A stretch of 64,000 nt of DNA from Thermoplasmata archaeon. Its GTDB lineage: Archaea; Thermoplasmatota; Thermoplasmata; Thermoplasmatales; ARK-15. The DNA lies in NCBI GenBank assembly GCA_039794005.1, contig JBAMMA010000017.1, forward strand, positions 114,490 through 178,489, written 5' to 3'. The first letter of the stretch is position 1, and every line of letters starts with the position of its first letter. A model generated the notes under the pieces. The model worked only from the letters and a program-made list of their open reading frames with translations. It was not told the origin of the DNA and made no database searches. Below, piece by piece: positions 11,913 to 50,159 of the stretch. Made by a program: the position numbers and the translations under genes.

Positions 11913-13364
11913 ATGTTTATTGAAAAATTTTCGGAAATTAGAATTGGGTATACTTTTGATGATGTATTGTTAATACCATCAAAAACAGAGGTAGATCCAA
12001 AGGATGTAAATACAGAAACTAAGCTAACAAGGAACATAAAATTAAAGATACCGATAGTGAGTTCTCCCATGGATACTGTAACAGGACCTGAAATGGCAAT
12101 AGCTATGGCGAGATTGGGTGGAATAGGAATAATTCATAGAAATCAGAGCATTGAGAGTGAAAGAGAGAGTGTTAGAAAAGTCAAAAGGGAGGAAAGCACA
12201 ATAATAAGGGATGTTTTTACAGTTTCTCCTGATGATACGATAAAGAATGTTTTAAAATATATGAGAGAGAAGAACATAACAGGATTTCCGGTTATGAAAA
12301 ACGGTGTTTTGGTGGGTATAATCACAGACAGAGATGTGAGATTTTTGAAAAATCATGATATTAAAGTTGAAGATGTTATGACTAAAAATGTTATTACTGG
12401 TAAAGAGGGAATAACGCTTGACGAGGCTTTGGAAATAATGCAAAGAAATAAAATTGAAAAGTTACCAATAACAGATGAAAATGGAAAGTTGACAGGATTA
12501 ATAACAGCTAAGGATATATTAAAGAGAAAAACATATCCAGATGCAGTCAGAGATGACGATGGGAGACTTCTCGTTGGGGCTGCAGTTGGACCATTTGATG
12601 TTAATAGGGCAAAGGTTTTGGAGGAGGGAGGGGCAGATGTACTTGTGATAGATACGGCACATGCACATAATAAGAAGGTAATGGAAGGCATAAAAGAGAT
12701 TAGAAAAAGTGTAAATATTGATATTATTGCCGGGAATATAGCAACATCCTCGGCGGCTGAAGATTTAATATCTCTTGAGGTGGATGCTCTCAGGGTGGGA
12801 ATTGGCCCTGGATCAATATGCACAACAAGAATAGTTGCAGGGGTAGGAGTTCCACAGTTAACGGCTATTTCTGATGTTGCAGAGGTTGCAGAAAAATATG
12901 GTATTCCCATAATTGCAGATGGAGGTATTAGATATTCTGGGGACATTGTAAAAGCATTAGGTGCTGGAGCACATACAGTAATGTTGGGAAATTTATTGGC
13001 TGGAACTGACGAGGCACCGGGTGAAGAAATAACAATTGGAGGAAGAAAATATAAAACTTATAGAGGCATGGGCTCACTGGGAGTAATACAAAAAGGTATT
13101 TCAGACAGATATGGAAAAATTGGTGAGACAAAATATGTACCTGAAGGTGTTGAAGGTGCAGTACCATATAAAGGTAAGGTTGAAGATGTAATATATCAAT
13201 TGGTTGGAGGCCTTAAATCAGGCATGGGTTATGTTGGGGCAAAGAATATAGAAGATCTGAGAAAGAACACAAAGTTCATCAGAATGACCGGGGAAGGCCT
13301 TAGGGAATCACATCCACATGATATTATGATAATTACAGAATCTCCAAATTATCCAAGATTATGA
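11913..13364 (+). CDS. guaB: IMP dehydrogenase with CBS pair
   Basis: TFDDVLLIP, SSPMDTVT, GIGPGSICTTR, IADGGI, YRGMGS, ESHPHD. Confidence 0.97.
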   Translation: MFIEKFSEIRIGYTFDDVLLIPSKTEVDPKDVNTETKLTRNIKLKIPIVSSPMDTVTGPEMAIAMARLGGIGIIHRNQSIESERESVRKVKREESTIIRDVFTVSPDDTIKNVLKYMREKNITGFPVMKNGVLVGIITDRDVRFLKNHDIKVEDVMTKNVITGKEGITLDEALEIMQRNKIEKLPITDENGKLTGLITAKDILKRKTYPDAVRDDDGRLLVGAAVGPFDVNRAKVLEEGGADVLVIDTAHAHNKKVMEGIKEIRKSVNIDIIAGNIATSSAAEDLISLEVDALRVGIGPGSICTTRIVAGVGVPQLTAISDVAEVAEKYGIPIIADGGIRYSGDIVKALGAGAHTVMLGNLLAGTDEAPGEEITIGGRKYKTYRGMGSLGVIQKGISDRYGKIGETKYVPEGVEGAVPYKGKVEDVIYQLVGGLKSGMGYVGAKNIEDLRKNTKFIRMTGEGLRESHPHDIMIITESPNYPRL

Positions 13365-15181
13365 AAAATAAAATTTTTTATAAAGCATTTATTATTTTAA
13401 TAATTTTCATAATGTTTTCAGAAACATACATAAATATTAATTTATATATAAAAAACAATAATAAAATTTTTAAAAATTTAAATTTAAATGTTTCAAATTT
13501 TTCTGTATATTATGGAAGCGTAAACGATAGCATTATAAATTACTTAAATAAATATGATTTGGTTATATTGCAACATTGGGCAGTTTCTTCATATAATCTC
13601 TCAAAAATTAAAGCGATAAAGATTGCTTACATCGATCTTGGGGAATATGATAACTCTACATATCCAAACTGTACAATAAATCTTACAGGAATTGTGATTG
13701 GTTATGACAATCAATGGAATCAACCAATTGTTAATGTTTCTTCACAAAAATGGATAAACTATACAATTTGCAGGGTAAAATATGACATAAAATTAGGTTT
13801 TAATGGAGTTATGTTTGATGATTTGGATGTTGTAGAGGAGTATCCTTGGGAGGCAAGTGGATTTATTAAGATAATTTCACTCATAAGGCAAGAGTTCAAA
13901 AATATATACATTGGTATAAATAGAGGATTTGAACTAATTAAAAACGTTTCTGAATACATTAATTTTGTATTATACGAAGATTTTGGTACATATTATAATT
14001 TTAATTCCAATGGATATAATTTTTTGAACTTTTCACAATTGGAAAATTTAAGTAATAATATAAATGAAATAAAATCATACGGAATTCAGGTTCTTGCACT
14101 TGGATATTCCCCTGCAGACTGCAACTATTATACATATTTTGATAGTTATATTGCTAATAAATTAAATGTGCCTTTGTATATAGGTAATTGGAATTTAACA
14201 TCTTTATATAATCAATGCAATTTTACATTTAATCTTTATGAAATCATGAAAAATTACAATGAGATGATAGTGGAACAGGCAAATTATATATTGAATTCCC
14301 AGCTGGATGATGGAGCAATTAAAATATCAATAAATAGCAATAAAATAATACCATACATTTCGAATATCGCTTCGATTGGCCTTATATATGCTTACGAATT
14401 GACTGGAAATGAAAGTTATTTAAATTCTGCTAAGAAATGGATTGAATGGTATTCCATTCACCAAAATATAAATAAAGATAATGAAGGCATAGTCGGAACA
14501 ATATATAATTATAACATTTCAAATGGTTTAGAATTATCAACAAATTATTACAATAGTAGCGATTCATACGCCGCCACATTTTTAATATTAATATATGATT
14601 ATTACAATTTGACAGGAAACATAACCTTCATTAAAGAGGAGTATAAAAATATAAAACTCGCTTTAAATGCAATATTTTATACTATGGATAATAATTCAAC
14701 CTATGCTAAGCCAAATTTAAAAGTAAAATATCTAATTGATAATTCTGAGGTTTATTTGGCTCTGCATGATTCAGCAAAAATTTTCAAATTGTTCAACGTT
14801 TCATATTCAAATTATTTAAATAACATATCAAACTCTGTTAAATACAATATTTTAAATTACTTTTTAATAAATAACACATTTTTCGATTGGTCTATTAATG
14901 GTACAATAAACATTTCTAATTATTATCCCGATATTAACGCAAATTATTGGCCTATAATTTTTGGTGTGATTAAATGGAATTCATCAATATCAAATAACAT
15001 TTTCAATTTTTTATTAAACGTTTCATATTATAATCAGGCCATTAATATAACAAATTTAGACCTGTCAGCAGCATACTATTCAACAATCATGGGTCGCAAC
15101 AATATATCCCAAATTATCATAAACAGTATTTTATCAATGGGAAATTACACAAATTGCTGGAATGTTGAGGATAGTTCCTAG
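13361..15181 (+). CDS. Exported glycoside hydrolase-like protein (GH114/PelA-like barrel plus alpha/alpha toroid), N-terminal part of a gene interrupted by an in-frame TAG
   Basis: Signal peptide; YYG..YDLVIL, AYIDLGE, GFNGVMFDDLD, INRGFE (GH114-like); then YELTGNESYL and DSYAATFL (toroid-like). Confidence 0.65.
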   Translation: MKNKIFYKAFIILIIFIMFSETYININLYIKNNNKIFKNLNLNVSNFSVYYGSVNDSIINYLNKYDLVILQHWAVSSYNLSKIKAIKIAYIDLGEYDNSTYPNCTINLTGIVIGYDNQWNQPIVNVSSQKWINYTICRVKYDIKLGFNGVMFDDLDVVEEYPWEASGFIKIISLIRQEFKNIYIGINRGFELIKNVSEYINFVLYEDFGTYYNFNSNGYNFLNFSQLENLSNNINEIKSYGIQVLALGYSPADCNYYTYFDSYIANKLNVPLYIGNWNLTSLYNQCNFTFNLYEIMKNYNEMIVEQANYILNSQLDDGAIKISINSNKIIPYISNIASIGLIYAYELTGNESYLNSAKKWIEWYSIHQNINKDNEGIVGTIYNYNISNGLELSTNYYNSSDSYAATFLILIYDYYNLTGNITFIKEEYKNIKLALNAIFYTMDNNSTYAKPNLKVKYLIDNSEVYLALHDSAKIFKLFNVSYSNYLNNISNSVKYNILNYFLINNTFFDWSINGTINISNYYPDINANYWPIIFGVIKWNSSISNNIFNFLLNVSYYNQAINITNLDLSAAYYSTIMGRNNISQIIINSILSMGNYTNCWNVEDSS

Positions 15182-24977: not shown

Positions 24978-26402
24978 ATGAAGGATGGGAGATATTTAAT
25001 AATTCAAATATATGGTAAACATTCTAATGACAAATATAAGAAAATAAGATATGAAATTGAAGGAAAAAGTTATGAAAGTAGATTGAGCTCAGGTGCACTT
25101 TTACAACATTATGGAAATGCAGATCTTTTATATTTGATTCCCGAGAGCCTTTTTATAAATGATGTTAAAAATACAAATGAATTTGAAAATTTTATGAAAG
25201 AAAATTATAAGGAAGTATATAAAAATGCTATAATTAATCAATTGGATATGGAAAAAATAAACATAAACATAAATAAAATTTATTCAATTGGTTTTTATGA
25301 CAACTCAGGAACTCAGGGAAATAAAAACACTCTCTCTGTTGAATTTAGGAATAATATAGATGGTATAAAATTAAAACTATTTAGAGATGTATTTAAAATA
25401 ATAAATAATTATGATAATATTATAATAGATTTATCTACTGGTCTTAATTATTATATACCAATAATAATTGATGTAATTAGGAATATTATAACTTATCAAA
25501 AACTCTCTCACTACATAGATACAAATAATTTTGATAAAAAGTATAATGTTACTGTTGTACCACCAGTAGGGGATTCAAAAACAACAATACATTTTGAAAC
25601 TATAGATGCAGTTGCATATTTTGATTTGATAGATGTAAAAAAATTTGAACTTTCTCCGTCTGACAGCACTAATACGGATATAATCATAAAAACGAGGAAG
25701 GAATTTGAAGACAATATAGATAGATTGAATAAAATAATGAATATAACAAAGATAGGTTTAAATGCTCTAAAAAACAATACACCACTGGTCTTTTATGATC
25801 AAGATATTTTAGATATTGATGAAGATAAATTAAATATGAGTTCTAACCAGATATTAGAAGATTATATTTTCAAAATAATAGATTATTTGACAGAATATAA
25901 AATTGAGATAAACAATAATCATATAATCGTATCGAGACCGAAAATTGATGGTTTAAAGATAATGAAGTTTATAATGGGGATTGGAATATATGAGAGTATT
26001 AGAAAGATTAGATATGATATCCAAAAAGATTTTAAAAATGTGTGGATAAATGAAAAAAACGCTGCAACAATCGAGGACATTGAAGCCAGGTTTACAAAAA
26101 TTTATCAAAAATTAAATTATAATGTTAACATAAAATTTTTGGAAAGGGATTTAAAAGAAATAAAGTCATTAAAAATTGATGGTAGTTATAGATTAATTTC
26201 AGAGCTAAAATATGGAAATAATACAAACGACAATTCAGGTAATGATATTAAAAACTCAGATATTAAAAGAAACTTTTTTGCCCATAGCGGATTTGAATAT
26301 AAAATAACTCAAGTTAGAAAGGATAACGATAAAATTTTCATCATGTATATAAAAAATGAAAAAAAGAATGAAATTAAAAGTTGGCTATTAAATCAATCTT
26401 GA
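24978..26402 (+). CDS. csx1: CRISPR-associated CARF-HEPN ribonuclease, Csx1 family (stand-alone)
   Basis: CARF elements LIPESL and DLSTGLNYYIP; C-terminal HEPN RNFFAHSG (R-X4-H). Confidence 0.85.
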   Translation: MKDGRYLIIQIYGKHSNDKYKKIRYEIEGKSYESRLSSGALLQHYGNADLLYLIPESLFINDVKNTNEFENFMKENYKEVYKNAIINQLDMEKINININKIYSIGFYDNSGTQGNKNTLSVEFRNNIDGIKLKLFRDVFKIINNYDNIIIDLSTGLNYYIPIIIDVIRNIITYQKLSHYIDTNNFDKKYNVTVVPPVGDSKTTIHFETIDAVAYFDLIDVKKFELSPSDSTNTDIIIKTRKEFEDNIDRLNKIMNITKIGLNALKNNTPLVFYDQDILDIDEDKLNMSSNQILEDYIFKIIDYLTEYKIEINNNHIIVSRPKIDGLKIMKFIMGIGIYESIRKIRYDIQKDFKNVWINEKNAATIEDIEARFTKIYQKLNYNVNIKFLERDLKEIKSLKIDGSYRLISELKYGNNTNDNSGNDIKNSDIKRNFFAHSGFEYKITQVRKDNDKIFIMYIKNEKKNEIKSWLLNQS

Positions 26403-27674: not shown

Positions 27675-29114
27675 ATGGATCTTATAACATTTTCTGAAAT
27701 TAAGATAAACAAGCCAGAGATTGAAAAAAACAAAATATCTACAGACATAGTTTTAAACAACAAGGAATCATTTAAATTAAAATTTACATACCAAGAGAAT
27801 ATTGAAGATATTCCTGGGATTGAAAATTTAGCAAATATGTTAGTATCTTCACCTATAATTAACTATGGACTATTCACAGAAAAAATATATTTTGATTTTC
27901 CCCTTTCTAAGGAGGATATTGAATATATCAAGCATAACATGGACATTATTTCTGCTGATATTTATGTTAACAGATTTTTGAGGGTAAACAATCCCTACAT
28001 TATAGAAGGATATTTACCGAATAAAGATCATGTAAATATAGAAGATTCAAAAACGAAGGCAAAGATTGAGGTAGAATCCATAGAAGATTTTAAATTCCAA
28101 GTTAAAACGGACGATAAAAAGGTCGCAATACTGTCATCTGGTGGAAAAGAAAGCCTTTTAACATACGGTCTTTTGAATGAGATGGGATTCGAAACACATC
28201 CTATGTTCTTCAACGAGTCAGGAGGCCATTGGAAAACCGCTCTTCCATCTTATAGATATTTCAGCAAAAATATTAAAAATACATCTAAAGTATGGTCAAA
28301 TCTTGATAGGTTTTATTTGTTCATGCTTGACAACATGAAATTCATAAAGAAAAATCACAGAAGGATATGGAGTGATAACTATCCAATAAGGCTCTTTATC
28401 TTTGGGCCTTATATATTTGCATTTTTGCCATTGGTAATAAGAAGGGGAATTGGAAATATACTGCTTGGAAGCGAATATGATGATGTAAGAGCTGAAAAAT
28501 ATTATCATGGTATAAGGCATTATTATGGAATATACGATCAAAGTGCTGACTTTGATTATTACAATACTGATTATTTTAAATCAAAAAATTTGAATATAAG
28601 GCAGTGGAGTATAGTAAGGCCAATAACAGGACTTATCGTTGAAAGGATTTTGATGAAAAGGTATAATTATTTGTATAAATTGCAAAGATCTTGCCATTCA
28701 TGTCATTATGAAAATAATGATGTCTATCCATGTGGAAAATGCTCTAAATGTCTAGGCATAATTTCATTCATATTGGCAAACGATGGTGATCCAAGGGATA
28801 TAAATTATAAGGATGAACATATAGAAAATCTTGAAAACAATATTTCAAAGACAATATTAAAATTGGATCAGGATGAAAAGGAACATGTATTTTACATTCT
28901 ATCTAAAAAAGGTTTTAAACTTGAAGGAAAAGAACATGATCACGTTGAAAAGATTCATATTGATGAATCATCACCATTGGATTTAATACCAGAGAATTTT
29001 AGGAGGGTATTTTTAATATACAAAGATTATGTAAAAGGTGTTGTAAAATATGAAAATGGAGATTTTGTAGATTTTAATGATTTTTTTGATAAATTGATAC
29101 AATTGAAGCAATGA
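27675..29114 (+). CDS. Uncharacterised PP-loop (adenine nucleotide alpha hydrolase) protein with Cys cluster
   Basis: LSSGGKESLL PP-loop variant; SCHSCH and PCGKCSKC; 2 bp after DUF1611. Confidence 0.7.
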   Translation: MDLITFSEIKINKPEIEKNKISTDIVLNNKESFKLKFTYQENIEDIPGIENLANMLVSSPIINYGLFTEKIYFDFPLSKEDIEYIKHNMDIISADIYVNRFLRVNNPYIIEGYLPNKDHVNIEDSKTKAKIEVESIEDFKFQVKTDDKKVAILSSGGKESLLTYGLLNEMGFETHPMFFNESGGHWKTALPSYRYFSKNIKNTSKVWSNLDRFYLFMLDNMKFIKKNHRRIWSDNYPIRLFIFGPYIFAFLPLVIRRGIGNILLGSEYDDVRAEKYYHGIRHYYGIYDQSADFDYYNTDYFKSKNLNIRQWSIVRPITGLIVERILMKRYNYLYKLQRSCHSCHYENNDVYPCGKCSKCLGIISFILANDGDPRDINYKDEHIENLENNISKTILKLDQDEKEHVFYILSKKGFKLEGKEHDHVEKIHIDESSPLDLIPENFRRVFLIYKDYVKGVVKYENGDFVDFNDFFDKLIQLKQ

Positions 29115-34120: not shown

Positions 34121-34666
34121 ATGTTAACGATAATACCAAACAAGGTTTTTTTTACAAAAGGCGTTGGAAGGCATACCAGCGAACTTGGATCTTTTGAAAG
34201 GGCCTTAAGGGATGCAGGTATTGCCCAATTTAACTTGGTTGAAGTTTCCTCAATTTTTCCACCAAATGCAGAGATAGTTTCTAAAGAGGAGGGATTAAAA
34301 TATTTAAAACCTGGCCAGATACTTTACGTTGTATTGGCTAGGAATTCAAGCAATGAATTAAACAGGCTGATCTCAGCATCTGTTGGTTTGGCAATACCAA
34401 AGGATAGAAACATGTATGGATATTTAAGTGAACATCACAGTTTTGGGGAAACTGAGCAAACAGCAGGAAATTTTGCAGAGGAACTTGCTGCTGAAATGCT
34501 TGCATCAACGCTTGGAATAGATCATCACCTCGTATGGGACGAGGAAATAAATACTTGGAAACTTGATGATAGGATATTGTTAACTCAAAATATAACATCT
34601 ACAGCCGTAGTTGAAAAGCCTGGAGAATGGACTACGGTGATTGCTGCAGCAGTTCTGATTCCATAA
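34121..34666 (+). CDS. pdaD: Pyruvoyl-dependent arginine decarboxylase
   Basis: [23 protein letters not shown] (Ser-Ser cleavage site), GYLSEHH. Confidence 0.92.
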
Positions 34667-35549
34667 ATTTTTTAGCTAAATTGTGAGCGGGCCTGATTGG
34701 GTCTATGTGATTTAATATTTCTTTACCAATTTTATATGCTCTTCTTAAAGAAATGTGATTTCCTGGTGAAACATATCTATTTTTAATTTTAAAGCCAATA
34801 ATTTCTTTTTGATCATATATCATTTCATCGATCAATTTGCCAAATAGAAGTGATTTTGCAATACCTAATGTTGGTTTATCCCATAATATGCCCAGAAATG
34901 ATGCAAGTCCTATTCTACGTGGATGAAGAATCCCGTTTCCGTCCAATATTCCCAATCCTTCAGGTATATGATCTAATAAAAGAATTCCTTCTCTATATGA
35001 CAAATATGTTGGTATATATGGAAAATTGACAATTTTTTTTATGAGTGTATAATCTTCAATTTTGTAATTTTTAAATTTAACAATAGCAATATATGCATTT
35101 CTATCATTATATGATACATCGTATGAATAAATATAATCAAAATCCACATCCTTCAATTCAAGCTTTTTTAATAGTTCATTTTCGAATTCCCTTATCTTTT
35201 TTAATGGATAGTTTGTCCTGAATTCTCTGAATCTTATCTTATCAAATCCTACTATTCTGTTATTTTCTACCTTGATTCCTTCAGATTCTAATAGTTCAAT
35301 CTTTTTCTTTATACCATTTGGATGTGTGAAACCTCCGATTGTTCCATCGCTCTTTACTACCCTATGACAGGGTATAACAATTGGGTTCGGATTTTTTGAT
35401 AGCATTTCACCAACTGCCCTCGACGCTATTATGTCCCCTAATGCAGTTGCAAGGTCACCATATGTTGATACCATTCCTCTAGGTATTTGCTTCACCAATT
35501 CATAAAAATATGAATAAAGATCGATTTTTATTTCTGAAATATCCATCAT
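34632..35549 (-). CDS. O6-alkylguanine alkyltransferase - endonuclease V fusion (AGTendoV)
   Basis: N-terminal STYGDLA..SRAVG..IPCHRVV; C-terminal [42 protein letters not shown]. Confidence 0.92.
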
Positions 35550-35562
35550 AAAAATATGTTAT

Positions 35563-37113
35563 TCAGAATATTTCATTTTTTCCCATCAATTCTATTTCAT
35601 ATTGTGAGAGGGGGATTTTAATAGGGATTCTAATATGCTGAGATATCATGAATGCTTCACTTCCATCTTTTCCAGGGCCTTTTAAATTTTCTATATATTT
35701 TATTTCATTTTTATTTAAAGAATAAAAATTTTCCATATCTTCTGAAACTTCATTATGTCTAAATATAACATGAATTAGGGAATTGTGCATCATGGTTTTC
35801 CCTTTTTCATTTTTCAATAAATCATCCGATTTTTGCGTGATTAAATTTATGGATGTTTTATATCTCCTTACATGTCTGAACATCATGTCTAAAATATTCA
35901 ATAATTCCTCATCCTTCATTATTTTCCATGCCTCGTCTATTACTAAGAATTTTCTTGAATCATTTTTTAAAATTGGGATTATAGAATTTAATATTATTTT
36001 GATTGATATATAAAAATCCATTTCCTTGATTTTTGAAAAATCAAAAATTATTCCATTTTCCGGTATTTTATTATTACCAAATAAAAATTTCCCGTATTGG
36101 GTATCATAAAAATCGGATATATATGATTTCAAATTTTTTCCTATACTATCTTTAGAATTTATTGACTTTAAAATCTTTTGAGCATTACAGTTTACACAAC
36201 TTTTTATACTTTTTGAAAAATATATCTTTTCTCTTTCACTTAAATGGAAAATGGATGAAAATAATGACGATATTCTTTCAACATATTCATCCAGTGATTC
36301 ACTTTCAAACCTTGTAAATACATCTGGAATATCATCATCGTTTAAATTTGAATATTTAATATCCAAGAATTTTGATAAATTTTTATATTCTCCCAATGGA
36401 TCGATTATAAAATATTTCGTGTTTTTGTAGGATAATTTTTCCCTCATCATTACCATTTTTACGAAATGGGATTTACCATAACCTGTAGAACCTGTTATTA
36501 TGCCATGAGAAGCTGGAAATTCCCATCTGTTAAAGATTATTGGCATATTGTTATAATAATGAAAGCCGATTAAAATGCCATTTTCCATTATTATTCCATT
36601 TCCAGGAAATGGAAATAGGTATGATATTCCATGTGTATGTAATTTTCTACCTTCACTGTTATCTGGAGGCATTATGAATTTTTTGTGCTTGTTAAAAATA
36701 TCGAATTTGTATCTTTTTATTTTAAATTTTTTGGATTTGTATTTGTTTATTATATTATGATATTCTTTACCTTTGATATAAATTATAAAATTTACATCGT
36801 ATAAATGGCCCTTTCCGGATATTATATACTCCAATAACGATTTGGCAGAAACTAATTTATTTTTGTTCTTTATAATGCTGGAAAAATTTTTACTATTTAT
36901 TGCAGGAAAAATTCTCTGCGATTCAGACTCTAAAATTTTTATTGAAAAATTGTCGCTTATGCTCTTAATATCAATTCTCATCGAATGTGGTTCCTCTGTC
37001 AGTATTTCAGATAATTCCGAAAATTTTATCCTTGCTGGAAGGTCCAATTCAAAATAACTTATATTGTTTTTACCTTTTTCTATTCTATCCTTTAATATTT
37101 TCATTTTTATCAC
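35563..37113 (-). CDS. VirB4/TraE-like secretion ATPase
   Basis: Walker A GSTGYGKS, IIDPLGEY, Walker B LVIDEAW, VRRYK, ITQ; preceded by GILIG..PIIFNRW. Confidence 0.85.
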   Translation of the reverse strand: MIKMKILKDRIEKGKNNISYFELDLPARIKFSELSEILTEEPHSMRIDIKSISDNFSIKILESESQRIFPAINSKNFSSIIKNKNKLVSAKSLLEYIISGKGHLYDVNFIIYIKGKEYHNIINKYKSKKFKIKRYKFDIFNKHKKFIMPPDNSEGRKLHTHGISYLFPFPGNGIIMENGILIGFHYYNNMPIIFNRWEFPASHGIITGSTGYGKSHFVKMVMMREKLSYKNTKYFIIDPLGEYKNLSKFLDIKYSNLNDDDIPDVFTRFESESLDEYVERISSLFSSIFHLSEREKIYFSKSIKSCVNCNAQKILKSINSKDSIGKNLKSYISDFYDTQYGKFLFGNNKIPENGIIFDFSKIKEMDFYISIKIILNSIIPILKNDSRKFLVIDEAWKIMKDEELLNILDMMFRHVRRYKTSINLITQKSDDLLKNEKGKTMMHNSLIHVIFRHNEVSEDMENFYSLNKNEIKYIENLKGPGKDGSEAFMISQHIRIPIKIPLSQYEIELMGKNEIF

Positions 37114-37378
37114 CCAAGATTACAATCAAAATATATGTTAGAGAGACAAAAATGAATACATAATTTATAAAAAAGAAAAGAAAAGTTATGAATATTAAGA
37201 AAGAAACTATTGAATATAAAAATTGATTTTTTAAAATGAAATATAAAAAGATTAAAGATGCATTCATTAATATTATTCCAAATATGTTTTTCGATATATA
37301 GGAATATAAAATCGAAATTGAAAGGGACAATAGTAAAAAATCTCTATAAAATTTCAACATAATGACCAAAGCCTCCAT
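37085..37378 (-). CDS. Small multi-TM membrane protein of the T4SS-like operon
   Basis: 97 aa, nearly all hydrophobic; overlaps both neighbours. Confidence 0.65.
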   Translation of the reverse strand: MEALVIMLKFYRDFLLLSLSISILYSYISKNIFGIILMNASLIFLYFILKNQFLYSIVSFLIFITFLFFFINYVFIFVSLTYILIVILGDKNENIKG

Positions 37379-38061
37379 ATAGAATATGAAAATTCATCAA
37401 CTTTCATTTTATTAAAATTAAATTCGAATGATGATATATTTGAAATAATTTTTTCAAGAGATTCCAATTCTTCAACGTTTCCGTTTTTTGATGAAAAAAC
37501 AATGAATGTTTTTAAAAATACCCTCTTTTCAAAATTATTATTAATTAAAATTTTAATTTCATTAGAATATTCATTTTCAATTTCGAATCTAATGTCTGGA
37601 ATTTCATCGTATAAATTAAAAATAGTTATGTCAAAGTTCGTTAAATTTAAAATCTCTATGAATTTTTCCTTTAATTCTTCCTTCTTTTCATCATCTAAAA
37701 ATTCACTGCCTACATATTTTACTGAATATGAAACAGATAATTTATCATTCCATTTAAATATAAATTCATTTACTTTTCTTATAGATGCATATTTTTCAAT
37801 CTCAAATTCTTTAACGTTTTTTCTTGATAAAATATAATAAAAATTTTTGTATAATGTAACATCAATATATTCTCCTCTCACCTTTATTAATGGTATTAAT
37901 ATTAAAATAATTATAATTATCAGAATTACAAATTCTTTTGTCAAATAAAAAAGCAAAATAAATGGAGTTGATAGAATTATTGAATTTTTAATTTTGGATA
38001 TTGGAAAATTCATTATAAAAATATCGTTCATTATATTTTCTGGAATATCTATCTCCTTCAT
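37354..38061 (-). CDS. PrgI/VirB3-like membrane protein with cytoplasmic C-terminal domain
   Basis: MKEIDIPENIMNDI N-terminus, two TMs, soluble tail. ATG 38061 sits next to the upstream stop (track start 38085). Confidence 0.55.
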   Translation of the reverse strand: MKEIDIPENIMNDIFIMNFPISKIKNSIILSTPFILLFYLTKEFVILIIIIILILIPLIKVRGEYIDVTLYKNFYYILSRKNVKEFEIEKYASIRKVNEFIFKWNDKLSVSYSVKYVGSEFLDDEKKEELKEKFIEILNLTNFDITIFNLYDEIPDIRFEIENEYSNEIKILINNNFEKRVFLKTFIVFSSKNGNVEELESLEKIISNISSFEFNFNKMKVDEFSYSIWRLWSLC

Positions 38062-38062
38062 T

Positions 38063-39067
38063 TTAGAATAACACCAGCGAACCAATCATTTCAATTCCAT
38101 TTGAAATAATATCCTTGGCTTTTAAAAGTATACCAAACCTTGGAAATAGAGAATATCCCGTGGGATAACCCATCCTGGACATTGAAAATGTAACTACATA
38201 TGGTATAAGCATTGATACCAATAGTATCGCTATCCAAAACAATGGATCTTGAATTATTCCCATCAGCATAATCAAAGGGGCCATAAATATTATTTCTATA
38301 CTTCTATCTATGAACGTAAGCCACATTCTTTTTCCTATTTCATATGTTCCATTGAATGTTAAAAATATTGAGAACAGAGGGAGAAACATAATGAAAAAAT
38401 ATATCCACACAATTCTCATAACTAGTACAATTGTGAATGCTAGCACTACTGTAAATAACGTTAATAATATCAATAATTCCAAAAGATTGTTTTCGGTATA
38501 TGCAAAATATATATAGTTATTTAAAAAATAGTTGAAAGGCCATAATTCTAGATCTGATATTCCTTGGTATGGATTTGGTGTTCCTGACCAATTTATCTGC
38601 ATTCCTGAATAAAAATAAATATATATTGCTCTCAACAATGAAAATAAAAGATCTGATATTATTAAAGAAAAATAGGCCAAAATGATTCCTAAGACTATAT
38701 TAAATAAATAGTCGTTCCTTTCATGAAAAATAAATTGCTTTTTCCAAAGATAATAGAATCCTGAAAATATTATGAATATAGAAATTGAAGGAGACACTAT
38801 ATAATTTAATATTAAATAATTGATGTTTACTGCAAAGTCCATACCTATCTGAGAAAATATTGGATAAATCGATGATTCATTTTTATAATACAATGGATTT
38901 AATGGAGGTATTTGACCATTTATCAATATTTGTGGAAATGCAAAATTTGGATTAAGCAATGGAAATGTAAAAGAAGCCCATATTATTGCCAATCCAAAAA
39001 TTAATGCAGAATTTATTGTTGATAAAAAATCGAATAAAATTAAATTTATTGCTGTTGATAATGCCAT
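38063..39067 (-). CDS. VirB6/TrbL/CedA-like polytopic membrane protein
   Basis: Multiple TMs with a central loop; MRIVWIYFFIMFLPLF...TYEIGKRMW pattern; position between pilin-like and VirB4-like genes. Confidence 0.6.
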   Translation of the reverse strand: MALSTAINLILFDFLSTINSALIFGLAIIWASFTFPLLNPNFAFPQILINGQIPPLNPLYYKNESSIYPIFSQIGMDFAVNINYLILNYIVSPSISIFIIFSGFYYLWKKQFIFHERNDYLFNIVLGIILAYFSLIISDLLFSLLRAIYIYFYSGMQINWSGTPNPYQGISDLELWPFNYFLNNYIYFAYTENNLLELLILLTLFTVVLAFTIVLVMRIVWIYFFIMFLPLFSIFLTFNGTYEIGKRMWLTFIDRSIEIIFMAPLIMLMGIIQDPLFWIAILLVSMLIPYVVTFSMSRMGYPTGYSLFPRFGILLKAKDIISNGIEMIGSLVLF

Positions 39068-39070
39068 AAT

Positions 39071-39412
39071 TCATCCTGTTGCAATGAAACTTATTATATT
39101 GACTATGGTTGAGGCACCTAGAACTATGAATGATGCAAGCAACATTATAGGCAAATCATGTTTAAATTTCATTATACCCTCTCTATCATCTTTGTGGAAG
39201 AATAAAAATAATCCTTCATATATCCAGAATATAGCAAGTATGGATCCAGCAATTGTGTTAACGACTATGGTTAATCTCGATATAACTTCTTTTAATTGCT
39301 GTGTGGCATTTTCTTGAATATTTATAGTATAATGGCTGCCTTCATTGAACACATATTGGTTATTCCCTATTGTGGATAATATAAATAAGGCTATTATTAA
39401 ATAATGAATCAT
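39071..39412 (-). CDS. VirB2/TrbC/CedA1-like pilin precursor
   Basis: 113 aa: leader, then two hydrophobic helices separated by a short charged loop (HKDDREGIMKFK); first gene of the operon. Confidence 0.6.
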   Translation of the reverse strand: MIHYLIIALFILSTIGNNQYVFNEGSHYTINIQENATQQLKEVISRLTIVVNTIAGSILAIFWIYEGLFLFFHKDDREGIMKFKHDLPIMLLASFIVLGASTIVNIISFIATG

Positions 39413-39595
39413 GATTTTTAGATTAATTTTATTTATATAAAACTTTCTTTATAAATTTTATAATTTTTATGATTTTTATAAATTTTATATTTCACGTTTG
39501 AAAAATTTTCAGAAAAATATTAATTCTTGTATTTATTTTTCATGATTTTTTCCATTTTTCTAAAAATTTAAATATTATTTTTTATAAGGTATATT

Positions 39596-39838
39596 ATGGT
39601 TGAATCGCGAGCGTCAATAGGGGTAAAGCATTCAACTAAGGAATTATTGACATATGTATCTGCACAGGTCCAGAGCGAGGTTGAGAGGGGAGATATAACA
39701 TGGGACGAATTTCTGATTTATTTAGCAATAAAATATTTGGACAATAAAGGAATATCATTTAATGAAATATTAAAGAAATTAAATATTGATGTTGAAGAAT
39801 TTGAAAGGGTAAGCAAAAGAGTTCAAGTGATGAAATGA
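39596..39838 (+). CDS. Small putative ribbon-helix-helix DNA-binding protein
   Basis: ASIGVKHSTKELL...ITWDEFLIYL beta-alpha-alpha pattern; divergent from the T4SS-like operon. Confidence 0.5.
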   Translation: MVESRASIGVKHSTKELLTYVSAQVQSEVERGDITWDEFLIYLAIKYLDNKGISFNEILKKLNIDVEEFERVSKRVQVMK

Positions 39839-46049: not shown

Positions 46050-46161
46050 AAAAATATCAGAAATTAATTTATTATTTTTATTTATTTTTAAAGAGAATAA
46101 TTAATAAAAATGTCAAATTAGCAAAAAATTTTAAATATATAATTTAATATAAAAAAACTTG

Positions 46162-46896
46162 ATGCGATTGTTAATAAATTTAACATCCGATAAACATGTT
46201 CCAAAAGAATATTTTAACAAATATTATTTTCAGAGTTCTATATATTTTAATTTGATAAATACAAATTTTGAAAATCTCCATAATAAGAAGGGATTTAAAT
46301 TTTTCACTTTTAGCGATTTTTTTCCCTCTGGCGATCTTGAACCAAATAAGATAAAGAGTGTAATCATATCTTCACCGAATAAAGATTTCATCAAAACATT
46401 GTTCGATAAGATGAATGATAATGGATTAATATATTTGTCTGAGAAAAAACTGAATATTTCATCTCTAAAAGTTTATGAGATTAAAAATGTGCCAAAGATT
46501 TTCGAGACAGGAAGTCCAATAGTTTTACAGGTGGAGAAAAAATATAACAAATATTTTTCCTTTAAAAATAATAATAGCATTTCATGTTTCTTAAGGCGTT
46601 TAAAAGAAAATGCAATTAAAAAATATACCACATATTATAACATTGAAGAATTTAATTTTGAAGAATTTATATTTGATGAATTAATGTTTAAAAGAGAGGT
46701 TGTTGTAAATTTAAAAAAGAATGGAAAAAATTTCTTAATGATAGGATCTACATGGTATTATTTAAAAAAGATTCGCATATCTAATGATCTGTTGAATTTT
46801 TATAGATTTATAATGGAAGCTGGTTTAGGCGAAAAGAATAGTTTGGGTTTCGGTTTTATAAATCCAAAGAAAATTAAGGATAAAAGAATCAAATAA
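46162..46896 (+). CDS. cas6: CRISPR-associated endoribonuclease Cas6 (stand-alone)
   Basis: FKFFTFS; C-terminal G-rich loop GLGEKNSLGFG. Confidence 0.88.
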   Translation: MRLLINLTSDKHVPKEYFNKYYFQSSIYFNLINTNFENLHNKKGFKFFTFSDFFPSGDLEPNKIKSVIISSPNKDFIKTLFDKMNDNGLIYLSEKKLNISSLKVYEIKNVPKIFETGSPIVLQVEKKYNKYFSFKNNNSISCFLRRLKENAIKKYTTYYNIEEFNFEEFIFDELMFKREVVVNLKKNGKNFLMIGSTWYYLKKIRISNDLLNFYRFIMEAGLGEKNSLGFGFINPKKIKDKRIK

Positions 46897-46938: not shown

Positions 46939-48222
46939 GTGAATATTATAAATGATATGAGAAAAAAAATGGTCGGCTTTAAAGAAGACGTTAAAATTGA
47001 AGATATGCTGGAAGAATTCAGAAAATATATAGGAAAATCTGATAGGTATGAAACGATCGATGTTTTAGAATCTTTAAACAGATTTTCATTTTCGGATATA
47101 TATTCTAATAATAATATACCAGAATATGATAGGGCTGTTGTGGATGGATTTGCCGTAAATTTCAACGATGTTCTCGGGGCATCAATAAACAATCCTGTAA
47201 GATTAAAAGTTTCCAATACAATATATCCAAATGATAAAAATGAATACATTTTGGAAAATGGACATGCCTATAGGATATTCACCGGAGCTAAGATACCCAA
47301 AAATGCAGATTGTGTTATAATGGTTGAAGATTGTATTGATTATGGAGATGAAGTGGATGTGCAAAAATCATGCTTTAATTATCAAAATATTTCTAGAAAA
47401 GGTGAAGATCTATCAGTAGGCCAAAAGATAATTTCGGCTGGAACAAAGATCACACCTTACCACATAGCATCATTAATATCTGCGAATTTCGAAAAAATAG
47501 ATGTTTTCAAAAGAATAAGGGTAGGAATTATAAATACTGGGGATGAGTTGTTTGATAAAGATTTTAAAAATACCACTGGAATGATGCTCTATTCTTTATC
47601 CAAACATTATGATATGGAACCAAAGTTATACATGTCTCGTGACAACGAGGAGGAATTAAAAAGAAAATTGATTGAATCCTTGTCTGAAAATGATATAGTA
47701 TTTACAACTGGCGGCTCTAGTGTAGGAGAGAAGGATATCGTTCCTGAAGTAATCAATTCAATGAACCCGGAAATTTTTATGCATGGTGTTTCAATGAGAC
47801 CTGCAAGATCCACAGGTTTTTCAATCATAAATAAAAAACCAGTGATATTACTATCGGGTTTTCCAGTTGCATCTTTCATATCTTTTTCTCTTTTCATAAA
47901 TGAATTTATGAAAAAATTTTATGGATCATTACCTATGAGGTCTCCGATAATAAAGGGAAAGATTACTAGGAGATTTACGAACAACCCAGGAATTAGGAGT
48001 TTTGTCAGAGTGAAAGTATATAAAGATGGAAATCAAATATTTGTAGAACCTCTTAGATTGACAGGTTCTGGAATTCTATCTACATTGACAGAGGCCAACG
48101 GAATACTGGTTTTAGAAGAACATGTGGAAGGATATGATGAAGGTGATGAAGTAACAGTCTTTTTGACACAACCAGTAGGAGATGAAAATAGTTTTATCTT
48201 TCCATATATTCAGTTCATGTGA
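46939..48222 (+). CDS. moeA: Molybdopterin molybdo/tungstotransferase
   Basis: DRAVVDGFA, IFTGAKIP, TGDEL, TTGGSSVG, LSGFP. Confidence 0.92.
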   Translation: MNIINDMRKKMVGFKEDVKIEDMLEEFRKYIGKSDRYETIDVLESLNRFSFSDIYSNNNIPEYDRAVVDGFAVNFNDVLGASINNPVRLKVSNTIYPNDKNEYILENGHAYRIFTGAKIPKNADCVIMVEDCIDYGDEVDVQKSCFNYQNISRKGEDLSVGQKIISAGTKITPYHIASLISANFEKIDVFKRIRVGIINTGDELFDKDFKNTTGMMLYSLSKHYDMEPKLYMSRDNEEELKRKLIESLSENDIVFTTGGSSVGEKDIVPEVINSMNPEIFMHGVSMRPARSTGFSIINKKPVILLSGFPVASFISFSLFINEFMKKFYGSLPMRSPIIKGKITRRFTNNPGIRSFVRVKVYKDGNQIFVEPLRLTGSGILSTLTEANGILVLEEHVEGYDEGDEVTVFLTQPVGDENSFIFPYIQFM

Positions 48223-50159
48223 TAAAAATGAAAATTTATCATAATCTAATAACATTAGAAGATGCAAAAATCATATTAAGAAATCTTTTGGATAAAATAA
48301 AATTGGATGTTGAAGAAATAGATTTAAAAAATTCTTATGGAAGAATTTTAGCTGAAGAAATATCCTCAAAGATAGATTCCCCTCCATTTGATAGGTCTGA
48401 GGTTGATGGTTATGCAGTAAACCATTTATCTTTAATAGGCGCTGAGGAAGATAATCCAGTAAAATTGAAGGTAAAATTTTCAATAAACCCTGGAGAATAT
48501 GTAAATGAACATATAAATTTAAATGAAGCTGCTGAAATATCAACAGGTTCAATGATTCCAAAAGGTGCGAATGCTGTTGTTATGGAGGAATATACTAAAA
48601 GGGTAGGAGAATATGTAGAAATATATAGATCTGTATCTCCTGGAGAAAACATTGCATTCACTGGAAGCGATGTTTTAATAGGCGATATAACGCTTTCTAA
48701 AATGACCAAGCTAGATAGCGCTAAGATAGCACTCATAGCATCTCTTGGTTATTCAAAAATTAAGGTGTATAGAAAAATAAGGGCTGGAATATTATCCACA
48801 GGCAATGAAATTTTACCACCAGGGGAAGAACTGAAACCAGGAAAATTATATGATTCAAATTCCTATTCAATTACTTCATATTTAAATATGCTCGATATTG
48901 ATTGGAAATTCTATGGAATAGCAAGAGATGATGAAAATGATATAAAGGAAAAAATATTTAAAGCATTAGAAGAACAGGATATTGTTTTTACGTCTGGAAG
49001 CACATCAGCCGGAAAGGGAGATATCATTTATAAAATAATTGAAGAAAATGGAAAACTTTTATTTCACGGACTTTTAATAAAACCAGGTAAACCCACGCTC
49101 CTCGGTATAATGAATGATAAAATTGTTATTGGACTCCCTGGATTTCCATTCTCATCTTTATCTGTTCTTGAATTTTTAATTAAACCGGTTTTCATGGATT
49201 ATTTAAAAATTCCGAATAAACAGATAAAATTAAATGCTAAAAGTATGATAAAAATAAAATCATCCAAAAATGTAGATGAATTTATACCAGTAGGAATAAT
49301 TAAAAGAATGGGCGAATACTATTTCTATCCCGTGAATTCACAGTCAGGATCAATAACATCAATGATATTTTCAGACGGCATAGCCATTATACCAATGAAT
49401 AAAAATTATATTGAAGAAAATGAAAATGTAGAAATAAGTTTAATAAACAATGAGTTTGAAAATTACGATATAATAGGGATAGGAAGTCATTGCCCTTTAT
49501 TAGATGATATATTAATAGACTATAAGAGGGCAAAATATATAAGAACAGGATCGACTGCAGGGTGGGTCTCAATTGAAAAAAATATAGCTGAATTTGCCGG
49601 GACCCATTTGTTGGATGAAAATACCTTGGAATACAACATACCTTTTATTGAAAAGTACAGGCTAAAAGATAAAGCCAAAATAGTAAGGGGATATGGAAGA
49701 ATGCAGGGGTTTGTTGTTAAAAAAGGAAACCCAAAAGATATAAAGGGCTTTGAAGATTTATTGAGAGAAGATGTTGTTATTGTAAACAGGGTTAAAGGTT
49801 CAGGTACTAGGACACTCTTAGATATAAATCTTAAAAAGATCGCAGAAAAGGAAAATGTAGATTTTAAAGAATTGATACAGGATATAAAGGGTTACTATTT
49901 TGAAGGAAAAACTCATTCCTCTGTTGCTGCTGCAGTTTCACAGGGAAGGGCAGATGTTGGCCTTACTATAGAATATTATGCATATTTATACAATCTGGAT
50001 TTTATACCAATTCAGTCTGAAATATTTGATCTCCTGGTCTCAAACCAAAGTGAAAAAATAGACGAATTTATAGAATATTTCATAAATGCCGTAAAGGAAA
50101 AGTATAGTAAATACAAAGGTTATAAATTATTGGAGGATACGGGTAAAATATATTATTAA
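48219..50159 (+). CDS. moeA: MoeA fused to a periplasmic-binding-protein-like domain
   Basis: PPFDRSEVDGYA, STGNE, KPGKPT, GLPGFP; C-terminal GSHC, GSTAG, NRVKGSGTR, THSSVA. Confidence 0.92.
   Translation: MIKMKIYHNLITLEDAKIILRNLLDKIKLDVEEIDLKNSYGRILAEEISSKIDSPPFDRSEVDGYAVNHLSLIGAEEDNPVKLKVKFSINPGEYVNEHINLNEAAEISTGSMIPKGANAVVMEEYTKRVGEYVEIYRSVSPGENIAFTGSDVLIGDITLSKMTKLDSAKIALIASLGYSKIKVYRKIRAGILSTGNEILPPGEELKPGKLYDSNSYSITSYLNMLDIDWKFYGIARDDENDIKEKIFKALEEQDIVFTSGSTSAGKGDIIYKIIEENGKLLFHGLLIKPGKPTLLGIMNDKIVIGLPGFPFSSLSVLEFLIKPVFMDYLKIPNKQIKLNAKSMIKIKSSKNVDEFIPVGIIKRMGEYYFYPVNSQSGSITSMIFSDGIAIIPMNKNYIEENENVEISLINNEFENYDIIGIGSHCPLLDDILIDYKRAKYIRTGSTAGWVSIEKNIAEFAGTHLLDENTLEYNIPFIEKYRLKDKAKIVRGYGRMQGFVVKKGNPKDIKGFEDLLREDVVIVNRVKGSGTRTLLDINLKKIAEKENVDFKELIQDIKGYYFEGKTHSSVAAAVSQGRADVGLTIEYYAYLYNLDFIPIQSEIFDLLVSNQSEKIDEFIEYFINAVKEKYSKYKGYKLLEDTGKIYY

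Follow-up and report, generated by a model that had tools for sequence, protein, structure and literature searches.

A compact five-gene operon on the chromosome of a vent-dwelling Thermoplasmata archaeon (Thermoplasmatales; ARK-15) was found to encode a set of type IV secretion system (T4SS) parts that is fixed in its genomic position, is held under purifying selection and has its VirB4 ATPase split between two genes. The operon occupies positions 35563-39412, on the minus strand, of a 64-kb stretch of DNA that was analysed as a whole and is here called the window (assembly GCA_039794005.1, contig JBAMMA010000017.1, positions 114,490-178,489, forward). It is best explained, at a confidence a little short of even, as a minimal T4SS, fixed in the chromosome and passed on vertically, that derives from a monoderm type resembling mating-pair-formation FATA (MPF-FATA) and would move chromosomal DNA between conspecific cells. 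An original prediction had taken the locus for a domesticated, T4SS-derived system like the Ced and Ted systems of other archaea; the T4SS derivation is borne out below by family matches for VirB4, the pilin and PrgI.

The five genes and the divided VirB4

Five co-directional, head-to-tail open reading frames (ORFs), g1 to g5, were found in the ORF listing on the minus strand, exactly where five tightly coupled genes had been predicted. The first, g1 (39412-39071), encodes a VirB2-type pre-pilin of 113 amino acids (aa) and is followed by g2 (39067-38063), encoding a polytopic membrane protein of 334 aa with about seven transmembrane (TM) helices. Next come g3 (38061-37354), of 235 aa when read from a conserved ATG (243 aa in the ORF listing, which starts it from a TTG at 38085), and g4 (37378-37085), a 97-aa protein with three TM helices whose gene overlaps both of its neighbours. 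The last gene, g5 (37113-35563), encodes a VirB4-type ATPase of 516 aa from a GTG, or 513 aa from an ATG at 37104. Going from g1 to g5, the first two pairs of genes are separated by 3 nt and 1 nt, the third pair overlaps by 25 nt and the fourth by 20-29 nt, and junctions as tight as these are the signature of a predicted translationally coupled operon. As the gene order is conserved in more than 12 genomes and each gene has a ratio of non-synonymous to synonymous substitution (dN/dS) between 0.07 and 0.17, the five were taken to be real genes and not chance ORFs.

The g5 protein is a VirB4-family ATPase in which both Walker motifs, A (GSTGYGKS, residue 208) and B (FLVIDE, residue 389), are intact. 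Its Pfam matches were AAA_10 (2e-14), DUF87 and P-loop_TraG, and its best NCBIfam models were those of monoderm conju_CD1110 (1.6e-27) and of the Mbov_0397 family from a mycoplasma integrative and conjugative element (ICE; 4.6e-24), followed by TraC, VirB4/CagE and then CedB. The family profile matched PDB 4AG5, the crystal structure of the C-terminal domain of Thermoanaerobacter VirB4, at 8.7e-29. Because the family scores lay far under the curated equivalog cutoffs, g5 is regarded as a divergent VirB4 member.

The main new result is that VirB4 is split, as read from the alignments, across two genes, with g3 supplying a PrgI/VirB3-like TM hairpin and the N-terminal VirB4 domain and g5 the remainder. 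The g3 protein has a conserved 'DIPE' N-terminus, a TM hairpin at residues 28-68 and then an N-terminal soluble VirB4 subdomain, while g5 holds the rest of the N-terminal domain and the RecA-like ATPase domain and has no TM helix. Among 12 g3 orthologues, seven matched PrgI (PF12666), as had been expected for a PrgI/VirB3-like third gene, four matched TrsD/TraD, and six (best 1e-13) matched positions from about 34 to 275 of the 894 in the mycoplasma VirB4 model VirB4_plasma (NF045975), of which g5 matched positions 317-634. In unsplit VirB4 proteins from metagenome-assembled genomes (MAGs) of Methanosarcinales, the g3 profile covered residues 2-247 and the g5 profile residues 271-841. The window copy of g3 gave no direct family match and is tied to its family through alignment and synteny, nothing useful was obtained when the g3 profile was compared with PDB sequences, and hhalign comparison of g3 and g4 with a 721-aa paralogue family was unsuccessful, the link being established later with hidden Markov models (HMMs). 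A VirB3-like, two-TM part is encoded beside VirB4 or joined to it, g3 being colinear with VirB3::VirB4 fusions, and it is because of the division of VirB4 between g3 and g5 that g5 looks short: the original description of a short, VirB4-like ATPase was right as to the family and missed the second gene.

No family match was found for g4 in Pfam or NCBIfam, nor for the g4 family in Pfam, and its position was kept in all syntenic loci. An N-terminal TM region that weakly matches the g4 profile (domain E 0.028) is fused to the 648-aa ATPase of locus L018 from a relative, and a comparable fused region was seen, from predicted TM helices only, in the 723-aa ATPase of locus L026. Since in both cases the ATPase itself carries an equivalent TM segment, g4 is probably a membrane anchor, or else a second VirB3-like partner, of the ATPase. 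Locus L018 (3036-5745), like L019 (6826-9536), consists of only a g3-like gene and a TM::VirB4 fusion (642-648 aa) beside purS-purL, with no adjacent gene for a pilin or a seven-TM protein.

The g1 protein is a VirB2/TrbC-type pilin by its architecture, having an N-terminal hydrophobic leader and then a pair of hydrophobic helices linked through a charged loop (HKDDREGxxKFKHD) that is invariant in the orthologue alignment, where 44 columns are invariant in all. The earlier assignment of the 113-aa protein as VirB2-like was upheld by its orthologues, nine of 14 matching T4SS_pilin (Pfam PF18895; best 1.7e-5) and five of 14 TrbC/VirB2 (best 5.7e-4); the window copy alone fell below threshold for PF18895 (E 0.067). 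Pilus structures of CedA1 and TedC were published in 2023 (PMC9905601), and the g1 profile found no chain at E<=10 among PDB sequences, in a copy of the PDB in which the presence of those two structures was unconfirmed. In all DHVE2-like orthologues a nearly invariant N-A-T sequon occupies residues 35-37, at the start of the mature pilin, which suggests N-glycosylation of an exposed N-terminus.

Hydropathy and the secondary structure of an AlphaFold2 (AF2) model indicated seven to eight long helices in g2, of which about seven are TM, with two conserved extracytoplasmic loops, and its gene is always flanked by that of the pilin on one side and those of VirB3/VirB4 on the other. No match to g2 was found in Pfam, NCBIfam or PDB sequences. 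The AF2 model, built on an eight-sequence alignment, reached a predicted local distance difference test score (pLDDT) of 52, too poor for a fold test, and the resulting Foldseek matches in the PDB (ABC-transporter helices only, E>1) are uninformative rather than negative. The family is rare: exhaustive HMM search of 1.84 billion representatives gave 26 clusters at E<=1e-3, none of them with a VirB6/TrbL Pfam match, and in the 10 clusters looked up every named member was a 'hypothetical protein'. Comparison by hhalign of the pilin with the g2 N-terminus, a relationship reported for CedA1 and CedA, returned a probability of only about 1%, and nothing significant was found when the family profiles were aligned to single PrgH, PrgI, PrgJ and PrgF sequences of pCF10, such single-sequence templates being too weak.

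Chromosomal residence, distribution and neighbouring genes

More than 12 species-level genomes related to DHVE2 and Aciduliprofundum carry these five genes in the order and at the chromosomal position seen in the window, comprising MAGs from hydrothermal vents and hot springs and including Aciduliprofundum sp. These genomes share GcvT, PdxT, UbiD and DUF1015 on one side of the operon and Ogt-EndoV, PvlArgDC and AdoMetDC on the other. In the window, Pfam annotation of the flanks to 10 kb in each direction identified MoeA, Cas6, UbiD, TFB, PdxT, GcvT and DUF1015 on the first side, and Ogt-EndoV, PvlArgDC, AdoMetDC, Pus10, L21e, Rpb4, KsgA, EamA, DUF1611 and Csx1 on the second. Identity to the window proteins across the syntenic genomes was 55-78% for the g1 pilin, 42-74% for g2, 19-53% for g3, 17-44% for g4 and 30-66% for the g5 ATPase, compared with about 70% for the neighbouring GcvT.

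When compared by the Nei-Gojobori method with a relative about 95% identical (L122), g1 to g5 gave dN/dS values of 0.10, 0.12, 0.17, 0.07 and 0.10, respectively, and nine neighbouring genes gave values of 0.01-0.21. Synonymous divergence was similar, at 0.19-0.32 for the operon and 0.23-0.42 for the neighbours, and the G+C content at third codon positions (GC3; 0.17-0.27) lay inside the range of the flanks (0.19-0.31). A dip in overall G+C content to 0.20 at 37-38 kb falls on the genes for hydrophobic membrane proteins. Neither an integrase nor a relaxase nor a coupling ATPase (type IV coupling protein, T4CP) was found in the Pfam-annotated 10 kb on either side or in the large ORFs of the rest of the window, in agreement with what had been predicted for a locus among chromosomal neighbours. 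No match to a profile of Thermoplasmata HerA/TrwB-like ATPases was present in the window, no att-like direct repeat brackets the operon, no tRNA and no Rfam match was found, and no relatives occurred on IMG/VR viral contigs. The marks of a conjugative element, namely a relaxase with a T4CP, an integrase, att site or tRNA, foreign composition and patchy distribution, are thus missing from the locus. It is a resident, vertically inherited part of the chromosome under purifying selection, and for these reasons the term 'domesticated', which had been applied to it at the outset, is well supported and that of an ICE remnant is not.

The g5 protein of the lineage formed by the window and L001 is only about 34% identical to its syntenic orthologues in L004 and L017, compared with about 70% for GcvT and 55-70% for the pilin. 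Judged from these identities, g5 has undergone accelerated evolution in that lineage, although its dN/dS within the lineage is 0.10. Two operon copies in Aciduliprofundum sp. ARK-15 (L014 and L017; PNIT01000047 and PNIT01000042) are 100% identical and lie at contig ends, and most likely represent one locus duplicated by assembly and not a true paralogue.

Conservation of the apparatus extended across the class. Scanning of 106 fetched loci of relatives (the L numbers used here) with HMMs of the five families identified clusters of pilin, seven-TM protein, VirB4 and in part g3 in Ferroplasmaceae, Ferroplasma, Thermoplasmataceae, E-plasma and numerous further MAGs of Thermoplasmata, each amid housekeeping genes and several with a conserved context of their own. 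Some of these clusters have an unsplit VirB4 of 684-706 aa. In eight loci, from one Thermoplasmata subclade (L056 7034-9052, L062 7433-9469, L064, L067, L077, L083, L084 and L098), the VirB4 gene is directly followed by one for an additional ATPase of 672-709 aa, of the HerA/FtsK/TrwB_AAD_bind type and lacking a TM helix; this gene, which is not present in the window, may encode a coupling or DNA-translocase partner. The g1 pilin and g2 seven-TM families were found almost only in Thermoplasmata, whereas loci of Patescibacteria and Clostridia share the pair of g3-like gene and VirB4 but not these two families. The cultured Aciduliprofundum boonei was not among the genomes that pattern-based scans turned up.

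In a neighbour-joining tree all 35 Thermoplasmata VirB4 proteins formed one group, separate from TraC and from the plasmid sequences of pNOB8 and Thermococcus, at a bootstrap value of only 35%. The tree is crude (361 columns, drawn without CedB and TedB), its subclades being solid, and the VirB4 proteins of the window and L001 formed a long branch placed away from their own syntenic clade. A second, paralogous cluster was observed in L026 (1-11555; GCA_049966975.1, the same MAG as L003), with a G+C content of 38%. It contains a 605-aa ORF, a g3-like gene (265 aa), a TM::VirB4 fusion (723 aa), genes for a six-TM protein, a KaiC-like protein of 450 aa and an archaeal type-IV-pilin-like protein, and an ORF of more than 1100 aa, and resembles a mobile element or else a contig binned wrongly.

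On the same strand, 13 nt past the g5 stop, starts the gene for a DNA-repair protein of 305 aa, a fusion of the alkyltransferase Ogt with endonuclease V (Ogt-EndoV; 34632-35549, minus strand; Pfam DNA_binding_1 9.6e-27 and Endonuclease_5 6.2e-31, with the PCHR motif present), which may be co-transcribed with the operon. A bifunctional fusion of this kind has reportedly been described in Ferroplasma. The gene adjoins the operon in L001-4, L007-10, L013, L016, L020-21 and L122, is separated from it by purSLQ in L005 and L006, and was absent from the operon neighbourhood of the other Thermoplasmata clades examined, so that the association is lineage-specific.

Divergent from the pilin gene, at 39596-39838 on the plus strand, lies a gene for an 80-aa protein that keeps this place in every DHVE2-like locus (33-70% identity) and had no Pfam or PDB match; its sequence pattern makes it a possible ribbon-helix-helix regulator. 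The divergent promoter region between the two genes (39413-39595; 183 bp, AT-rich) contains tandem palindromic TTATA-N6-TATAA-like boxes at 39448-39489, where Tandem Repeats Finder reported an array of 9-nt period. A TATA-like element precedes the pilin ATG by about 25-30 nt. Similar paired boxes, spaced by about 18 bp, are present in the homologous spacer of L004 (7478-7512), L008 (5456-5490) and L005 (7543-7575). The boxes may be operators at which the 80-aa protein acts, or no more than TATA boxes, and may have arisen by chance in DNA of 80% A+T.

Elsewhere in the window, Pfam annotation identified Cas6 (46159-46896, plus strand) and Csx1 (CARF-HEPN; 24978-26402, plus strand), and Tandem Repeats Finder detected no CRISPR array in the 64 kb. 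Two plus-strand ORFs, of 606 aa (13361-15181) and 479 aa (27675-29114), had no Pfam match at 1e-5, the latter being kept beside DUF1611 in relatives. Adjacent MoeA paralogues are encoded at 46939-48222 and 48219-50159 (plus strand), the second fused to a periplasmic-binding-protein superfamily (PBP-like) domain.

Relation to known systems

Ced and Ted are chromosomal, relaxase-less T4SS derivatives that lack a coupling protein and import DNA (PMC9905601). The Ced system of Sulfolobales and Desulfurococcales (CedA, CedA1, CedA2 and CedB) and the Ted system of Thermoproteales (TedA, TedB and TedC) share with the Thermoplasmata operon a VirB2-like pilin, a protein with about seven TM helices and a VirB4-like ATPase, and, like them, the operon is a chromosomal, relaxase-less T4SS derivative inherited with its host lineage. 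It occurs in another phylum (Thermoplasmatota), however, and differs from both in its split ATPase, its VirB3-like anchor and its extra three-TM gene; it also forms one tight operon, whereas tedB stands apart from tedC and tedA. The CedB model (NF041017) scored g5 at 33.2 bits (E 2e-8) against a cutoff of 700 bits, compared with 96 bits for the monoderm VirB4 model, and ranked fifth, behind four bacterial-type VirB4/TraC models. No Ced model matched g1 to g4, in an NCBIfam library whose content of Ced membrane-component models was unchecked; at E<=1 that library returned nothing for g2, g3 and g4 and two unrelated weak matches for g1. On these scores the operon is not an orthologue of Ced, and the Ced/Ted-like label given to it originally holds only as an analogy.

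The best-scoring VirB4 models were instead those shared with MPF-FATA conjugation systems, such as CDS13-17 and CDS5 of the mycoplasma ICE and PrgH-PrgI-PrgJ of pCF10. The N-terminus of the mycoplasma VirB4 model is matched by the g3 family, the order prgH-prgI-prgJ of pCF10 is the same order of polytopic protein, VirB3-like protein and VirB4 as seen here, and no VirB1- or VirB8-like gene is present, as in the wall-less mycoplasmas (PMC12857230). MPF-FATA systems, however, reside on ICEs or plasmids with a relaxase and VirD4, whereas the Thermoplasmata operon is chromosomal with neither gene nearby. In this respect it resembles the T4SS of Patescibacteria (Candidate Phyla Radiation), which are chromosomal, mostly relaxase-less and MPF-FATA-derived, with VirB2-like pilins (PMC12102498), and many of whose loci have the same two-gene arrangement of a g3-like protein followed by VirB4. 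Those systems are bacterial, however, have a VirB4 of about 600 aa and lack the Thermoplasmata pilin and seven-TM families. The closest system in function is Ced/Ted, by descent the monoderm and mycoplasma-type T4SSs, and in structure the chromosomal T4SS of Patescibacteria. A further T4SS without relaxase or coupling protein, ComB of Helicobacter pylori, serves to import DNA; it belongs to a diderm, has VirB7-10 core components and works with ComEC.

In agreement with the original statement that no characterised example was known from this lineage, only one listing of a similar cluster was found in the literature. The Cuniculiplasma genomes contain 'Type IV secretion components' comprising arCOG05340, arCOG04034 (VirB4), arCOG05369 and a membrane protein found only in Thermoplasmatales, a cluster given one sentence in a 2016 genome paper without analysis of homology, of the split, of conservation or of function (PMC5155288). 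Like the operon described here it is chromosomal and combines a membrane protein, VirB4, a multipass protein and a lineage-specific membrane protein, and, likened by gene listing, it is very probably the same class-wide cluster.

Possible roles of the apparatus

Under the explanation preferred here, the g1 pre-pilin would be inserted in the membrane and its leader removed, and g2 would form a membrane platform or channel in the role of VirB6. The g3 TM hairpin and g4 would dock the soluble g5 to this platform, reconstituting a two-chain VirB4, and the ATPase would pull pilin from the membrane to build a short pilus or conduit. Because neither a relaxase nor a coupling protein was found, it is not the launching of a plasmid but the movement of chromosomal DNA between like cells, by import or exchange, that is proposed, in parallel to Ced and Ted but from another branch of T4SS. 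Four hints of a link to DNA were counted in favour, namely the HerA/FtsK/TrwB-type ATPase of the eight loci, the Ogt-EndoV gene 13 nt downstream, the precedent of Ced and Ted and the heavy recombination in Ferroplasma populations (PMC2704941). To our knowledge, no mechanism has been named for recombination in that genus.

Several points weigh against DNA transfer by such an apparatus. Nothing in the analysis shows DNA to be the substrate, the cluster of this lineage includes no DNA-binding, nuclease or coupling component, and the absence of relaxase and T4CP refers to the 64-kb window and not to the remainder of the genome. The adjacency of Ogt-EndoV is synteny inherited within one clade and not an independent recurrence. 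As for the membrane parts, no link of g2 to VirB6, TrbL, CedA or PrgH was found by HMM, profile-profile or fold comparison. The size of the 334-aa protein, its seven or so TM helices and its position are as expected from the earlier description of it as VirB6-like, its sequence gave no match, and position and topology make g2 a candidate VirB6-analogous channel or platform. The AF2 model of g1 (pLDDT 75) is a helical hairpin of helices 2-72 and 77-112 for which Foldseek returned generic helical hairpins from the PDB at E>=2 and no conjugative pilin; the predicted fold is consistent with a pilin yet non-discriminating, such a hairpin being too simple for Foldseek. Finally, the role proposed for the chromosomal T4SS of Patescibacteria, also relaxase-less, is support of epibiotic life and not conjugation (PMC12102498).

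This last point also favours the chief rival explanation, which on balance is unlikely but by no means negligible: that the same domesticated apparatus is a surface filament or contact device that does not handle DNA, serving adhesion, cell-cell contact, delivery of proteins or effectors, or interaction with episymbionts, for example the ARMAN/Micrarchaeota that accompany Thermoplasmatales. The products of the cluster are confined to a pilin, membrane parts and a pilus-assembly ATPase, and it includes neither a coupling ATPase nor a DNA-processing gene. Thermoplasmatales cells are said to have been imaged with needle-like contacts to ARMAN cells. However, Ced and Ted, the sole archaeal relatives of this kind to have been characterised, move DNA, a sister subclade adds a HerA/FtsK/TrwB-like ATPase, a module of the DNA-translocase type, and no effector-like gene is conserved beside the cluster.

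Less probable by a wide step is that the operon is a host-encoded mating-pair-formation module that serves, in trans, mobilisable plasmids or integrated elements whose own relaxase and coupling protein are encoded at another place in the genome. The second, compositionally foreign cluster (L026) in the MAG of a relative, GCA_049966975.1, would fit such an arrangement, as would the separate VirD4-family ATPase in Cuniculiplasma genomes (PMC5155288). The window itself has no relaxase or T4CP, though, class-wide vertical conservation on behalf of transient elements would be unusual, and L026 brings its own VirB4.

A membrane complex unrelated to T4SS and driven by a HerA/FtsK-superfamily ATPase, for instance in defence or transport, is very improbable. 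Although all family matches lie far below curated cutoffs and g5 has weak matches to HerA_antiphage (0.0021) and FtsK_SpoIIIE (0.0091), VirB4 models far outscore these, the VirB4 crystal structure is matched as strongly as given above, and T4SS_pilin/TrbC, PrgI/TrsD and the VirB4 N-terminus are matched independently; this explanation was rejected on the VirB4 scores together with the separate T4SS-specific matches. Least probable of all, and effectively refuted, is a decaying ICE or plasmid remnant: VirB4-type genes usually reside on mobile elements and the G+C content does dip over the operon, but the five genes are intact and under purifying selection, GC3 equals that of the flanks, the dip coincides with membrane-protein genes, and the position is identical across genomes down to about 70% GcvT identity, with no integrase, att repeat or tRNA.

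If the operon does move chromosomal DNA, it may be a third, independently domesticated conjugation-derived machine, of monoderm/FATA and not of Ced or Ted descent and class-wide in Thermoplasmata, with a two-chain VirB4 and with pilin and channel proteins peculiar to the lineage, that could lie behind the intense homologous recombination of natural Ferroplasma and Thermoplasmatales populations and possibly behind repair-linked exchange in the DHVE2 archaea of vents, a wider proposal that we hold more doubtfully than the explanation on which it builds. Domesticated conjugation machines that move chromosomal DNA have so far been known from three crenarchaeal orders only, and according to the discoverers of Ced and Ted none besides these had been reported (PMC9905601). 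The capture of T4SS parts for exchange of host DNA would then have happened more than once, and a candidate that can be tested by knock-out would be available for the unexplained high recombination of Ferroplasma in acid mine drainage. The system would also offer structural work a very small T4SS, with five proteins, a natural split in VirB4 and an envelope that is wall-less or consists of an S-layer only. As lineages with cultivable members (Ferroplasma and Thermoplasmataceae, and, according to the literature, Cuniculiplasma) carry the family, direct testing of its part in the genetic exchange of these archaea is possible.

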